Below, piece by piece: positions 2,411 through 3,463 of a stretch of 16,498 nt of DNA; the stretch's first letter is position 1; each line of letters opens with the position of its first letter. Under the pieces are notes generated by a model. It saw only the letters and a program-made list of their open reading frames with translations, searched no databases and had not been told where the DNA came from. Origin of the DNA: a virus (lineage: Duplodnaviria > Heunggongvirae > Uroviricota > Caudoviricetes); the IMG/VR virus record IMGVR_UViG_2737471837_000012, positions 1-16,498 of that record; one strand, given 5' to 3'. Both the position numbers and the translations under genes were made by a program.

Positions 2411-2450
2411 CTGCATTTCCCTTAGCCCGGCGGCCTGCCGGGCATATAAG

Positions 2451-3278
2451 TTATTTAATCTGGATAAATGGTGTATTGGCACCACTGGTCATGTATTGCG
2501 GCAGTGTACCGTTCCACTTGTTGATGGCTTCCAGCTCCATGACGCCTGGGTTCTGGCGTAGAGCTTCGCCGCGTAAACGAATGGCATCGGCTTCTGCCTG
2601 GGCTTTTGTTCGAATGGCATCAGCCTGTCCGGCAGCTTCCGCACGTAGCATGTTGGCCTCCGCTTCACGTTGCTTGACTTCCTGCTCGCGCTGCAGGGTT
2701 TTCTGGTTTGCCGTGACTTTGGCGTTAATGCTGTCGATAACGGTTGGAGGGTACTCCGGTTTACCTACATAAGAGAGGCTCATTACCTGAATGCCGATGG
2801 GTGTCATCTCTTCCTGAATGTCTTTAAGTGCGGCATCCAGTAGTTCAGACTTGCCGCCGTCGATAAATTTGTCAGTGGTCATTTTGCTGGCCAGCCGATT
2901 GAGTGCGTCGGCAATTTTCTGGCGCAGGTCAGTGTCGGTAATGTCATCCACGCCTTTGCGGTAGGTCTGAAACACCGTGGTAACTTTGGATGGGTCAACT
3001 TTGTAGGCCACGCCGATGTGATAGCCGATGGTTGTACCGTCACTCATCTGGAAACTGAACGGTTCATCGTAGGTCTTCATTTGTTTGAAGGTCGGGAAGA
3101 TGTAAACTTCAGTATTCCAGCCGGTCCAGTAGCGGCCAACGCCAACCACTTCACCGACGCCTTTGTCGTCGCCCAGTTTATTTACCTTGATGCCAACATT
3201 ACCTGGTTCAACGCGATCGCAACCGACAAGGCCAATGGTCGGAAGAACAATGGCTAAAGCAAAAATAACTTTTTTCAT
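2451..3278 (-). CDS. SPFH/band-7 (stomatin/prohibitin/HflK-C-like) domain lipoprotein (275 aa)
   Basis: N-terminal signal peptide ending in lipobox LVGC (MKKVIFALAIVLPTIGLVGC). Central SPFH-like core and a C-terminal Ala/Glu/Arg/Gln-rich coiled-coil segment (QREQEVKQREAEANMLRAEAAGQADAIRTKAQAEADAIRLR). AAGGA Shine-Dalgarno upstream. The ATG overlaps the stop of the upstream small membrane ORF (ATGA). Confidence 0.8.
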   Translation of the reverse strand: MKKVIFALAIVLPTIGLVGCDRVEPGNVGIKVNKLGDDKGVGEVVGVGRYWTGWNTEVYIFPTFKQMKTYDEPFSFQMSDGTTIGYHIGVAYKVDPSKVTTVFQTYRKGVDDITDTDLRQKIADALNRLASKMTTDKFIDGGKSELLDAALKDIQEEMTPIGIQVMSLSYVGKPEYPPTVIDSINAKVTANQKTLQREQEVKQREAEANMLRAEAAGQADAIRTKAQAEADAIRLRGEALRQNPGVMELEAINKWNGTLPQYMTSGANTPFIQIK

Positions 3279-3463
3279 CTTTTATCCTTAGTGAAAGAAA
3301 GCCCCTTGTAAATGGCATAAATGCAGGGCGGGGTCAGAAACGCCAGTGCAAAGCCAGAAATAACTGCTATAGTATCCTTCATGGATATAAGGAACGGAAC
3401 AAGTAATCCGTAAATGCATGCGATAATTGCCAGTAAAATTACTATTGTGAAATACAGTCTCAT
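3275..3463 (-). CDS. Small two-helix membrane protein (62 aa), translationally coupled to the SPFH lipoprotein
   Basis: Two hydrophobic helices (FTIVILLAIIACIYGLLVPFLI and IAVISGFALAFLTPPCIYAIY). Stop overlaps the SPFH start by 4 nt. Its own Shine-Dalgarno is weak. Confidence 0.55.
   Translation of the reverse strand: MRLYFTIVILLAIIACIYGLLVPFLISMKDTIAVISGFALAFLTPPCIYAIYKGLSFTKDKR

Follow-up and report, generated by a model that had tools for sequence, protein, structure and literature searches.

SPFH proteins (stomatin, prohibitin, flotillin, HflK/C and erlin) build cages on membranes, and the purpose of these cages is debated. HflK/C forms a periplasmic cage around FtsH (PMC13086221). SPFH operons of Bacillus, as cited in one source, belong to envelope-stress responses, with YqfA providing resistance to toxic peptides (PMC2636767), and two further reports describe small membrane proteins of B. 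subtilis, SamG and SamH, that recruit the SPFH protein SamI (YdjG/H-YdjI; 10.64898/2026.02.06.704340; PMC8581546). Genes annotated as 'band 7/SPFH' have appeared in phage genome papers for twenty years, with a guess about HflC and lysogeny as the only explanation offered. Our own search of the literature on the function of phage SPFH proteins likewise found only speculation, and no experimental datum for the clade described here.

We analysed a 16,498-nucleotide stretch of DNA from a Caudoviricetes virus (IMG/VR record IMGVR_UViG_2737471837_000012; hereafter the window), in which a 275-residue SPFH lipoprotein is encoded together with a 62-residue membrane protein. The features of this locus are as follows.

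3275..3463, minus strand: gene for the 62-aa two-helix inner-membrane partner (open reading frame, PHROG 1130)
3362..3403, minus strand: end of the first transmembrane segment (TM1) and periplasmic-turn motif, LVPFLISMKDTIAV, conserved in the family
3275..3278, minus strand: stop/start overlap ATGA between the partner gene and the SPFH gene (4 nt, translational coupling)
2451..3278, minus strand: gene for the 275-aa SPFH/Band 7 lipoprotein (Pfam Band_7, PHROG 200)
3219..3278, minus strand: lipoprotein signal peptide with lipobox L17-V18-G19-C20; Asp21 is mature residue +2
2655..3215, minus strand: SPFH/Band 7 domain, residues 22-208 (Pfam envelope; AlphaFold2 core pLDDT 80-94)
2553..2747, minus strand: 65-residue Ala/Glu/Arg-rich helix, residues 178-242 (DSSP on the AlphaFold2 model)
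2499..2519, minus strand: C-terminal signature K-W-N-G-x-L-P, residues 254-260, the clade's most conserved motif
2425..2443, minus strand: GC-rich hairpin with a 7-bp stem and 5-nt loop, 8 nt past the SPFH stop codon and without a U tract

Both reading frames lie where an earlier sequence-based proposal for this DNA (the original prediction) had placed them, at 3275-3463 and 2451-3278 on the minus strand, and the ATGA overlap that it described is present at 3275-3278. All 79 informative close viral loci retain an intact small reading frame and the identical 4-nt overlap. A Shine-Dalgarno sequence, AAGGA, lies inside the partner gene 8 nt 5' of the SPFH start codon, and on their sequence the two genes are translationally coupled. 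Both are under purifying selection, with dN/dS values of 0.185 (small gene) and 0.025 (SPFH gene). A scan of viral contigs with a single protein returned relatives that were all at least 97% identical, and was used for allele statistics and not as a measure of diversity.

The pair is also kept together in related prophages, as the original prediction required, and in unrelated ones. When we examined 80 diverse loci with a profile HMM of the partner, 67 had a match directly upstream of the SPFH gene on the same strand, in taxa ranging from Enterobacterales to Dyella, Leptospira, Bacteroidales and Sphingomonas; inspection of 11 further loci revealed an upstream reading frame with two transmembrane segments (2-TM) or a fused extension, giving 78 of 80 in total. 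Three unrelated temperate elements carry the pair, namely phiP27-like prophages, the P2-like phage P88 and the 108-kb Cyrano, whose relatives within E. coli genomes are mostly on plasmid records. The partner is detectable as well in phages 4MG, Fifi011, Paxi, Pacha and RpoS-V10. In DL54, Panisse and phiCbK it is missing or other small proteins take its place, and thus it is perhaps not strictly required. Clustering of the neighbours in the 80 loci gave no third gene conserved across taxa, the synteny being lineage-specific, and the conserved neighbours of the pair include no FtsH gene or other protease gene. What is annotated as a 'CLP protease' close to the pair in phage Fifi011 contains an AAA ATPase domain only.

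The 62-aa protein matches PHROG 1130, 'membrane protein' (E=2.5e-23), which is placed in the category 'moron, auxiliary metabolic gene and host takeover'. Hydropathy and the AlphaFold2 model (helices H2-26 and H31-60, pLDDT 67) agree with the proposed two-helix membrane protein. Its two hydrophobic segments are accompanied by net charges of +1 at the N-terminus, 0 in the turn and +3 in the C-terminal tail, and the predicted topology has the N-terminus inside, a short periplasmic turn and the C-terminus inside. The turn motif has the consensus (V/I)PxL(I/V)S(A)xS/D(T)xAV, which reads LVPFLISMKDT in the window; Pro23, Ser27 and Gly37 are invariant across the partners of the phiP27-type elements, P88, Cyrano, 4MG and Fifi011. 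The partner as a whole diverges fast, with only 25-40% identity where the SPFH proteins are 79-93% identical. Comparison with NfeD, which the original prediction had suggested as a profile for the pair, was negative: a Pfam search of the 62-aa protein at E≤1 returned noise only (COX8, 0.36), the AlphaFold2 model has two helices and nothing else, and NfeD identity was rejected because, besides lacking a Pfam match, a protein of 62 residues leaves no room for the OB fold (PF01957). Judged by its sequence, the partner is instead a member of a distinct 2-TM family dedicated to this SPFH clade.

The 275-aa protein, named 'SPFH domain-containing protein' in RefSeq, scores well above the gathering threshold for Pfam PF01145 Band_7 (CL0433; E=6.1e-31, 108.3 bits against a cutoff of 23.6, residues 22-208), and also matches PHROG 200, 'lipoprotein' (E=2e-114). 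The SPFH-like core and long C-terminal helix that had been read from the sequence are both seen in the AlphaFold2 monomer, which consists of the core and one long helix (pLDDT 75.6). Foldseek matched this model with a probability of 1.00 to HflK/C, prohibitin, erlin, stomatin and flotillin, the best matches being HflC/HflK 7vhq, prohibitin 8rrh and erlin 9vvj (E about 1e-13), and the full-length matches also include QmcA. HflK ranks first in a phmmer search against the PDB, and the region of helix 178-242 aligns with the HflK helix (match to 7vhp/7vhq); in the model this helix corresponds to CC1, the helix that forms the wall of SPFH cages. Orthology to HflK or HflC was rejected, since the protein reaches 25.5 bits against the 134.4 set for HflC (TIGR01932), and 23.4 against 159.4 for HflK (TIGR01933). 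The C-terminal KWxGxLP signature reads K254-W-N-G-T-L-P260; in 100 sequences whose identity to the query is 30-62%, Trp255 never varies, and conservation reaches at least 90% at Gly257 and at Pro260. The last 30 residues have low confidence in the AlphaFold2 monomer, which would be expected if the signature segment folds only within an oligomer.

The N-terminus of the 275-aa protein, MKKVIFALAIVLPTIGLVGC followed by DR, is a lipobox. In line with the lipoprotein assignment of the original prediction, LVGC follows a hydrophobic core and fits the pattern [LVI][ASTVI][GAS]C, and residues 1-21 are the lone hydrophobic segment of the protein. Across 100 diverse SPFH family members the conservation of Cys20 is at least 90%, and in close relatives Cys20 and Asp21 each reach at least 90%. 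By the E. coli sorting rule an Asp at +2 retains a lipoprotein in the inner membrane, and Asp21 may point to such retention here. However, Arg occupies +3, and in homologues from other enterobacterial phages the +2 position is taken by Glu or Tyr.

Natural fusions bear on the side of the membrane that the SPFH domain occupies. About 20 of 150 family representatives (about 13%) carry an N-terminal 2-TM extension fused to the SPFH protein. These extensions match the partner HMM with E-values down to 4e-7 (Z=1e6) and contain the turn motif of the free-standing partner, and the fused reading frames are uninterrupted in the DNA of loci L134, L148, L149, L152, L154 and L161. Summed over the fusions, the net charge is +18 at the N-terminus, -4 in the turn and +25 in the linker between TM2 and TM3. 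Read by the positive-inside rule, this pattern puts the SPFH domain outside the cytoplasm, and we predict that it faces the periplasm.

Relatives of the SPFH protein occur in 414 of 50,697 deposited phage records, or about 0.8%. Lytic carriers of the family include the Vequintavirinae (rV5-like), Schitoviridae (N4-like), Bruynoghevirus (LUZ24-like) and Ounavirinae, as well as phiCbK, crAss-like, Lak and jumbo phages, and the family is also abundant in lytic environmental phages and free-living soil bacteria. DNA matching the region of the pair was found in 576 of 5,426 complete E. coli genomes (about 10%), including Stx-converting prophages, with about a third of the matches on plasmid records. 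Chromosomal copies occur in conserved non-prophage contexts: in Dyella the order is BlaR1/BlaI, the pair, hemerythrin and NrdAB, and in Leptospira the copies accompany Sdh/Frd and an EAL protein. Common descent alone could account for the conserved order in Dyella. Two TACAnnTGTA boxes lie at the blaI start in 18 of 19 Dyella loci, about 300-350 bp from the pair, and are only a hint of a regulatory link between BlaI and the pair. The presence of the family in strictly lytic phages and in conserved non-prophage chromosomal contexts weakens a lysogeny-specific role.

In the window, the gene order fits the proposed placement in an early-left operon, running int-xis-...-pair-...-CI-like repressor with all genes leftward. 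The predicted hairpin CCCGGC-N5-GCCGGG, without a U-run, is present just 5' of the ribosome-binding site of a DUF5406 gene. It has a computed RNA minimum free energy of -17.1 kcal/mol (z=-2.1), and across alleles the stem is kept while the loop varies, including at loci with another downstream gene; at the corresponding place in phage Paxi a terminator is annotated. A consensus scan compared with shuffled sequence detected no promoter or terminator signal above chance adjoining the pair. Promoter matches near the pair reached only 9 of 12 positions and were no more numerous than in shuffled sequence, leaving a 'moron with its own promoter' unsupported. Furthermore, PADLOC (PADLOC-DB v2) gave no match at E≤0.1 for the pair or its five neighbours, which indicates no link to a catalogued defence system.

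Most likely, the pair forms a scaffold on the outer face of the inner membrane. We consider it probable that its architecture is that of a lipid-anchored, periplasm-facing SPFH cage with a transmembrane partner. The 275-aa protein would be exported, receive its lipid at Cys20 and stay attached to the inner membrane on the periplasmic side. We infer that its SPFH domains, together with the long helices, build a ring or cage there that resembles those of HflK/C, prohibitin and erlin. Its 62-aa partner is predicted to be a helical hairpin that keeps its N- and C-termini in the cytoplasm and exposes a turn of four residues to the periplasm; the ATGA coupling would tie its synthesis to that of the lipoprotein. 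It most likely serves, in roughly equal amounts, as the transmembrane anchor of the cage, standing in for the N-terminal TM helix of HflK/C-type proteins. Such a complex would fence off a patch of inner membrane, and during lytic development (here from the early-left operon) the phage might use it to keep that membrane, along with its proteins, in a favourable condition. This could take the form of envelope-stress-type protection or insulation, perhaps with restricted access of proteases such as FtsH. That the two genes are a self-contained membrane-scaffold module used for upkeep of the infected cell's inner membrane is the explanation we prefer, although we put it forward tentatively, at somewhat under an even chance. 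A role in membrane homeostasis as such is a weaker suggestion still, possible but on balance doubtful. Membrane protection follows from analogy and from the exclusion of alternatives and not from a direct signal. In this explanation the pair is not a dedicated lysogeny switch.

The original prediction had pointed to FtsH and the control of lysogeny. On this reading the phage cage mimics HflK/C or competes with it around FtsH, altering how stable CII, CIII or Xis-type regulators are, and with that the lysis-lysogeny or excision decision. HflK/HflC are indeed the nearest relatives in sequence and structure, face the periplasm and cage FtsH (PMC13086221; PMC2636767). The phage protein has the same predicted orientation, its gene lies in a leftward operon between the CI-like repressor and xis/int, and several genome papers have made the same guess (PMC4936722; PMC10269572). 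However, the HflK/HflC equivalog models give 23-25 bits where 134-159 are required, a single SPFH gene takes the place of a K/C pair, with a lipid anchor instead of a TM helix, and no FtsH or other protease gene is a conserved neighbour. The family is moreover common in phages that cannot lysogenise (Vequintavirinae, Schitoviridae, Bruynoghevirus, phiCbK, crAss-like, Lak), and copies are found in chromosomal non-phage contexts. We regard modulation of FtsH in this decision as decidedly unlikely. The lysogeny-specific part of the earlier claim is weakened by the strictly lytic carriers and the non-prophage chromosomal copies. A more general influence on FtsH or another membrane protease is possible, as is an exclusion role. 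Classic exclusion factors are small inner-membrane proteins or lipoproteins expressed early or from prophages (T4 Imm, Sp, HK97 gp15, Cor/Llp), and the pair, a small membrane protein and a lipoprotein, resembles them in type. Superinfection exclusion or abortive infection, with the cage and its TM partner blocking DNA entry by other phages or triggering membrane collapse upon infection, would be useful to lytic and temperate phages alike and so fits the distribution. The PHROG category of the partner includes host takeover, and an arms race could explain why a fast-evolving partner sits beside an SPFH protein that is highly conserved. We nevertheless consider this role unlikely. Neither the pair nor its neighbours matched a PADLOC model or anything like a known exclusion protein, selection on the SPFH protein is very strongly purifying (dN/dS 0.025), the chromosomal copies sit in stable housekeeping synteny outside defence islands, and we detected no independent promoter or terminator for expression in a lysogen.

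Two further readings place the function of the lipoprotein elsewhere. It might be a surface or vesicle lipoprotein of lysogenic conversion that acts on an animal host through virulence or immunomodulation. A parallel, by description, is the prophage-encoded 'HflK/C-like' SPFH protein PM0222 of Pasteurella multocida (25-35 kDa), which is found in outer-membrane vesicles, signals through TLR1/2 and attenuates virulence when deleted (PMC9872710). YPMT1.49c and YPMT1.49Ac were also flagged in an omics network of putative virulence factors in Yersinia pestis (PMC3521224), and the phiE125 record lists the pMT1 gene YPMT1.49c as similar to the phiE125 SPFH lipoprotein. However, TLR2 activation is generic to any lipoprotein, the abundance of the family in lytic environmental phages and free-living soil bacteria does not suit such a role, and the inner-membrane partner argues for a job inside the envelope. 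We give this reading very little credence. Nearly as improbable is a lysis-timing device, in which the cage sequesters or buffers a holin, spanin or SAR-endolysin at the periplasmic face. The cage would share the compartment of the lysis proteins, the family occurs in lytic and temperate phages, and the crAss-like phage cr126_1 has a peptidoglycan hydrolase two genes downstream. On the other hand, the early or middle genes among which the pair lies in the window, P88, 4MG, DL54 and Paxi are far from any lysis cassette, and no lysis genes lie near the chromosomal copies.

If the preferred membrane-scaffold explanation is extended, the pair could be a portable nanocage of diderm phages, both lytic and temperate, in which a lipid-anchored, periplasm-facing SPFH ring and a palisade of 2-TM proteins are installed early on the host inner membrane and enclose specific host or phage membrane machinery. 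We hold this broader proposal to be rather unlikely as it stands. If true, it might involve the caging of FtsH or other quality-control proteases, a seal that protects the site of DNA entry from superinfecting phages, or a shield for the membrane against pore-forming abortive-infection effectors. It would represent a previously unrecognised class of host takeover, the first SPFH system with a dedicated partner other than NfeD, and a simple model for how SPFH cages choose their enclosed contents; a pair that cages a host protease or guards the membrane would in itself be a new host-takeover strategy. What is new here is the small protein as a dedicated non-NfeD partner, the natural fusions and the predicted periplasmic orientation. 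With them, what was a vague annotation becomes a system open to testing: two genes in a compact, mobile unit that is small enough for cryo-EM and genetics and that offers natural experiments in its split and fused forms, its lytic and temperate carriers, and its phage and chromosomal copies.

The known systems each share part of this design. The exclusion proteins T4 Imm/Sp, HK97 gp15, Cor and Llp are, like the pair, small membrane proteins or lipoproteins expressed early or from prophages, but have no detectable similarity to it, and we know of no SPFH domain in any of them. The SamG/SamH-SamI system resembles the pair in recruitment to the membrane within an envelope-stress operon; the likeness is by description only, and the SamI-type SPFH protein is cytosolic and works with PspA. 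Prohibitin and erlin are top Foldseek matches over their full length and form cages on the side of an energy-transducing or ER membrane that faces away from the cytoplasm, in the intermembrane space or ER lumen; they differ in being eukaryotic, TM-anchored heteromers of two paralogs with 15-18% sequence identity to the phage protein. The SPFH-NfeD operons (QmcA-YbbJ, YqiK-YqiJ, FloT/FloA-NfeD and PH1511-PH1510) have the two-gene layout in common, with a small membrane partner encoded immediately upstream, and QmcA is also a structural match. In contrast to the phage pair, which is predicted to be periplasmic and has no NfeD, these systems face the cytoplasm and carry an NfeD/OB fold. The closest likeness in the searches is to HflK/HflC, the best PDB match in both sequence and structure, which shares the SPFH core, the long wall helix and a conserved C-terminal segment, as well as the inner-membrane anchoring and periplasmic orientation predicted for the phage protein. 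However, HflK/HflC is a K/C heterodimer of two paralogs, each with its own N-terminal TM helix, whereas the phage module has a single SPFH gene, whose product combines a lipid anchor with a separate 2-TM partner.

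By sequence the window represents a lambdoid prophage of the phiP27 type. The region shares 94-96% identity with phiP27 and several Stx2-converting phages, and its best match among complete E. coli genomes (98% identity) lies in a prophage that adjoins mlrA. Every gene from int and xis up to and including the CI-like repressor (6006..6752) reads leftward, so the 'early-left operon' of the original prediction is a fair description. A sigma-70 match (10/12) at 5932..5904 is a candidate pL-type promoter, and a promoter and terminator scan near the pair gave nothing above chance. 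After the cro-like gene, the rightward operon carries two consecutive Ant-like anti-repressor genes (7115-7822 and 7701-8699, plus strand) that match PHROG 63 and PHROG 130; as listed these ORFs overlap by ~120 nt, so one start codon is probably wrong.

The two overlapping ORFs that had been predicted are both present on the minus strand and share an ATGA:

3275..3463, minus strand, partner gene, ORF of 62 aa
2451..3278, minus strand, SPFH gene, ORF of 275 aa

The Shine-Dalgarno sequence of the SPFH gene (AAGGA) sits within the partner gene. As anticipated, the 275-aa protein matches Pfam Band_7/SPFH well over the gathering score (E=6.1e-31), and it also matches PHROG 200 'lipoprotein'; it opens with a typical lipoprotein signal peptide, ending LVGC and followed by Asp, and residues 1-21 are its only hydrophobic stretch. 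The 62-aa protein, which matches PHROG 1130 'membrane protein', has the two hydrophobic segments of the proposed two-helix membrane protein, with AlphaFold2 helices at 2-26 and 31-60 (moderate confidence); its N-terminus, short turn and C-tail have net charges of +1, 0 and +3. RefSeq names the large homologues 'SPFH domain-containing protein' and the small neighbour 'hypothetical protein'. The 176-nt gap directly upstream of the partner gene holds a 35-aa ORF with one TM helix (MKCNRELNRVKLILILATVLTLTEIIILFIALSVG, window 3487-3594, minus strand), without annotation in the RefSeq and phiP27 records and intact in 48/79 close loci with conservative changes only; it may add one more small membrane protein, the third, to the pair's transcription unit.

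The GC hairpin reported beyond the SPFH gene is real and lacks a U tract (2425-2443; 7-bp stem, 5-nt loop, MFE -17.1 kcal/mol, z=-2.1). Its stem is conserved across alleles while its loop varies, and it persists where the downstream gene differs, which suggests a 3' element that moves along with the SPFH gene. The longest ORF of the DUF5406 gene (window 2039-2485, minus strand; 148 aa from a GTG at 2485) runs into the SPFH 3' end and contains the hairpin. RefSeq starts this gene at an ATG at 2410 (123 aa), an AAGGGA ribosome-binding site suits the second ATG (2404) even better, and the phiP27 record (L04) retains the long version.

The pair had been expected to be conserved together in related prophages, and each of the 79 informative close viral loci keeps the small ORF uninterrupted and the 4-nt overlap unchanged. 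In these alleles the small gene has a dN/dS of 0.185 and the SPFH gene one of 0.025, indicating that both are truly coding and that the SPFH protein is very tightly constrained. The same arrangement recurs in the otherwise unrelated P2-like phage P88, where it lies in the early operon flanked by cox and a replication gene, and 108-kb phage Cyrano; plasmid records carry about one third of the E. coli matches to the region (219/648 places). Between the phiP27-type, P88 and Cyrano versions the SPFH proteins are 79-93% identical whereas the partners are only 25-40% identical, with a common LLVPxLIS motif at the end of helix 1. Comparison of P88 (L002, 3467-4497) with the window (2451-3463) places a mosaic boundary within the module: the SPFH genes are 91.6% identical in DNA over residues 17-265 only (query 186-931), and the signal peptide and partner gene are unrelated in DNA (partner proteins 25% identical). 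Mature SPFH parts seem to have been exchanged among differing partner/signal-peptide backgrounds. In Shigella flexneri SFBU1023 and E. coli ECMA0423 (L085, 5212-~5990, and L086) an IS1-like element (left end GGTAATGACTCCAACTTATTGAT) lies exactly at the partner/SPFH junction, separating the genes by ~800 bp and abolishing the ATGA coupling, a natural uncoupling mutant.

An exhaustive profile search returned 3008 representative clusters at E<=1e-3, with 228 at E<=1e-30. Most SPFH homologues are ~280 aa with an N-terminal lipobox; among the best 150, about 20 are longer (320-390 aa) and bear an N-terminal two-TM extension with the partner's motif. An HMM built from the small proteins matches these fused extensions with E down to 4e-7 (Z=1e6). 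The E-values of this partner HMM were obtained on small, targeted databases at an artificially high Z, and their weight is mainly positional, in that the frame matched is always the one immediately upstream. One genome per species was scanned, giving 80 loci that cover Enterobacterales, Xenorhabdus, Morganella, Sutterella, many Dyella, Leptospira, Bacteroidales, Saprospirales, Sphingomonas and others. The same-strand frame directly upstream of the SPFH gene matches the partner HMM in 67/80, and by inspection a further 11/80 have either a 2-TM ORF upstream or one uninterrupted frame that fuses the two, leaving only 2/80 with neither; fused frames are present in the DNA of L134, L148, L149, L152, L154 and L161. 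No third gene is conserved beside the pair across taxa among the 80 loci. A partner upstream or fused, and no other conserved neighbour, is the pattern expected of the two subunits of one complex. NfeD was considered as an identity for the partner and rejected, SPFH-NfeD membership being negative. In the 344-aa family representative P0168 the partner-like 2-TM domain is C-terminal (residues 290-327; HMM E=4e-4 at Z=1e6), which could be a reverse-order fusion or read-through into a downstream partner gene.

The fusions also bear on topology. Their order is TM1, a short turn, TM2, a linker, a third hydrophobic segment still with a lipobox, and the SPFH domain. Net charge summed over 16 fusions is +18 at the N-terminus, -4 in the turn and +25 in the linker, so by the positive-inside rule the N-terminus and linker would be cytoplasmic and the SPFH domain is predicted to lie outside the cytoplasm, which is consistent with the stand-alone lipoprotein being exported. 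With a helical membrane protein as partner, the complex is placed at the inner membrane. In at least 90% of close relatives the +2 residue is Asp, which in E. coli classically signals retention in that membrane; however, Arg at +3 and the Glu or Tyr at +2 of other enterobacterial phage homologues are caveats to such retention.

SPFH relatives occur in 414 of 50,697 phage records (tblastn). Strictly lytic carriers are found in Vequintavirinae (4MG), Schitoviridae (Paxi), Bruynoghevirus (DL54) and Ounavirinae (Panisse), and among phiCbK-like phages, crAss-like phages, Lak megaphages and other jumbo phages; phiE125, P88 and phiP27 are temperate examples. Among ten phages checked outside the close relatives, the gene directly upstream is the partner by HMM in Fifi011, Paxi, Pacha and RpoS-V10, a 2-TM ORF in cr126_1 and phiE125, a larger multi-TM protein in phiCbK, a one-TM protein in DL54 and a soluble protein in Panisse, and in 4MG the partner (HMM) lies one gene further away. 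Directly downstream of the SPFH gene in lytic phage Fifi011, gp54 (L168, 3361-4500) carries a YadA-like membrane anchor (E=1e-14), a trimeric autotransporter domain unusual for a phage.

Chromosomal copies lie in conserved non-prophage neighbourhoods. In Dyella, Peptidase_M56 (BlaR1-like) and Penicillinase_R repressor genes are divergent from the pair, followed by hemerythrin and NrdAB, and the Leptospira copies lie beside genes for succinate dehydrogenase/fumarate reductase and an EAL protein. In 18/19 loci with the BlaR1-like gene (L100, L103-L133; Dyella and relatives), two TACAnnTGTA boxes of the BlaI/CopY-type operator consensus stand 27-28 bp apart where the divergent blaI-like gene begins, facing the pair and ~300-600 bp upstream of the SPFH match; this motif hints that a BlaR1/BlaI-type regulon for envelope signals could include the chromosomal module. 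A copy of the pair is found on a Y. pestis contig whose size (L092, 108 kb) is that of a plasmid, and the phiE125 record gives pMT1 gene YPMT1.49c as similar to its SPFH lipoprotein. A multi-omics network analysis (PMC3521224) lists YPMT1.49c and YPMT1.49Ac of Yersinia pestis pMT1 among genes putatively associated with virulence.

The SPFH gene is already annotated in databases and appears in many phage genome papers (T4-like and Vi01-like phages, CSP3, GIB1, AH14b), where mentions in the literature searched are bare listings or speculation on HflC and lysogeny. That literature described neither the dedicated 2-TM partner nor the natural fusions, and it likewise had nothing on the KWxGxLP signature, the periplasmic placement predicted here or the wide occurrence in lytic phages. 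The prokaryotic SPFH classification of 2009 left subfamilies 6-12 undocumented (PMC2636767), and this clade might correspond to one of them. Wrong labels for the lipoprotein are widespread in older GenBank records (phiP27 AJ298298, Stx2 phages LC5678xx, Kosakonia, phiCbK-like phages): 'serine protease', 'putative serine protease', 'transposase' and 'mobile element protein'; the 'serine protease' label was probably inherited from the old COG name 'membrane protease subunit, stomatin/prohibitin homolog'.

The original prediction offered control of host FtsH or lysogeny as one of two roles. Relatives in many strictly lytic phages argue against a lysogeny-specific job, and we consider FtsH or lysogeny modulation improbable overall. 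Superinfection exclusion or abortive infection, for which PADLOC found no defence-family signature in the module, is unlikely, if somewhat less so. A part in lysis timing is very doubtful, as in lytic genomes the pair sits among early or middle genes, outside the lysis cassettes, and we give least credence to a lysogenic-conversion lipoprotein comparable to Pasteurella PM0222 (PMC9872710). SPFH operons elsewhere are described as parts of envelope-stress and membrane quality-control systems (PMC2636767; bioRxiv 10.64898/2026.02.06.704340; PMC8581546). Together with lytic, temperate and free-living carriers and the lack of a defence signature, this makes membrane insulation the most economical reading, and we tentatively suggest that the module might insulate or stabilise an inner-membrane patch during infection, maybe by restricting access of membrane proteases such as FtsH.

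The AF2 model of the 275-aa protein reaches a mean pLDDT of 75.6, with high confidence in the SPFH core and low confidence at the C-terminus, and the C-terminal coiled coil that had been claimed appears as a single 65-residue helix (178-242). SPFH membership tests were positive; HflK/HflC membership was rejected, both equivalog models falling far under threshold. The best solved relative by sequence is HflK (E=2e-4). The clade's most conserved motif is the C-terminal KWxGxLP, with Trp255 invariant in 100 diverse members. C-terminal segments of known cages form the cap, so low monomer confidence there would be unsurprising. The leading Foldseek matches in the PDB are HflC/HflK (7vhq), prohibitin (8rrh) and erlin (9vvj), at E ~1e-13, with stomatin, flotillin, major vault protein and QmcA next; every one of these SPFH proteins builds a ring or cage, and HflC/HflK, prohibitin and erlin all face the non-cytoplasmic side of their own membrane. 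We think it likely that the two proteins make up a self-contained membrane scaffold of two subunits, seated on the periplasmic side of the inner membrane. In it the 62-aa hairpin would serve as transmembrane anchor, in amounts roughly equal to the lipoprotein, and the lipoprotein would assemble as a ring or cage like those of HflK/C, prohibitin or erlin.
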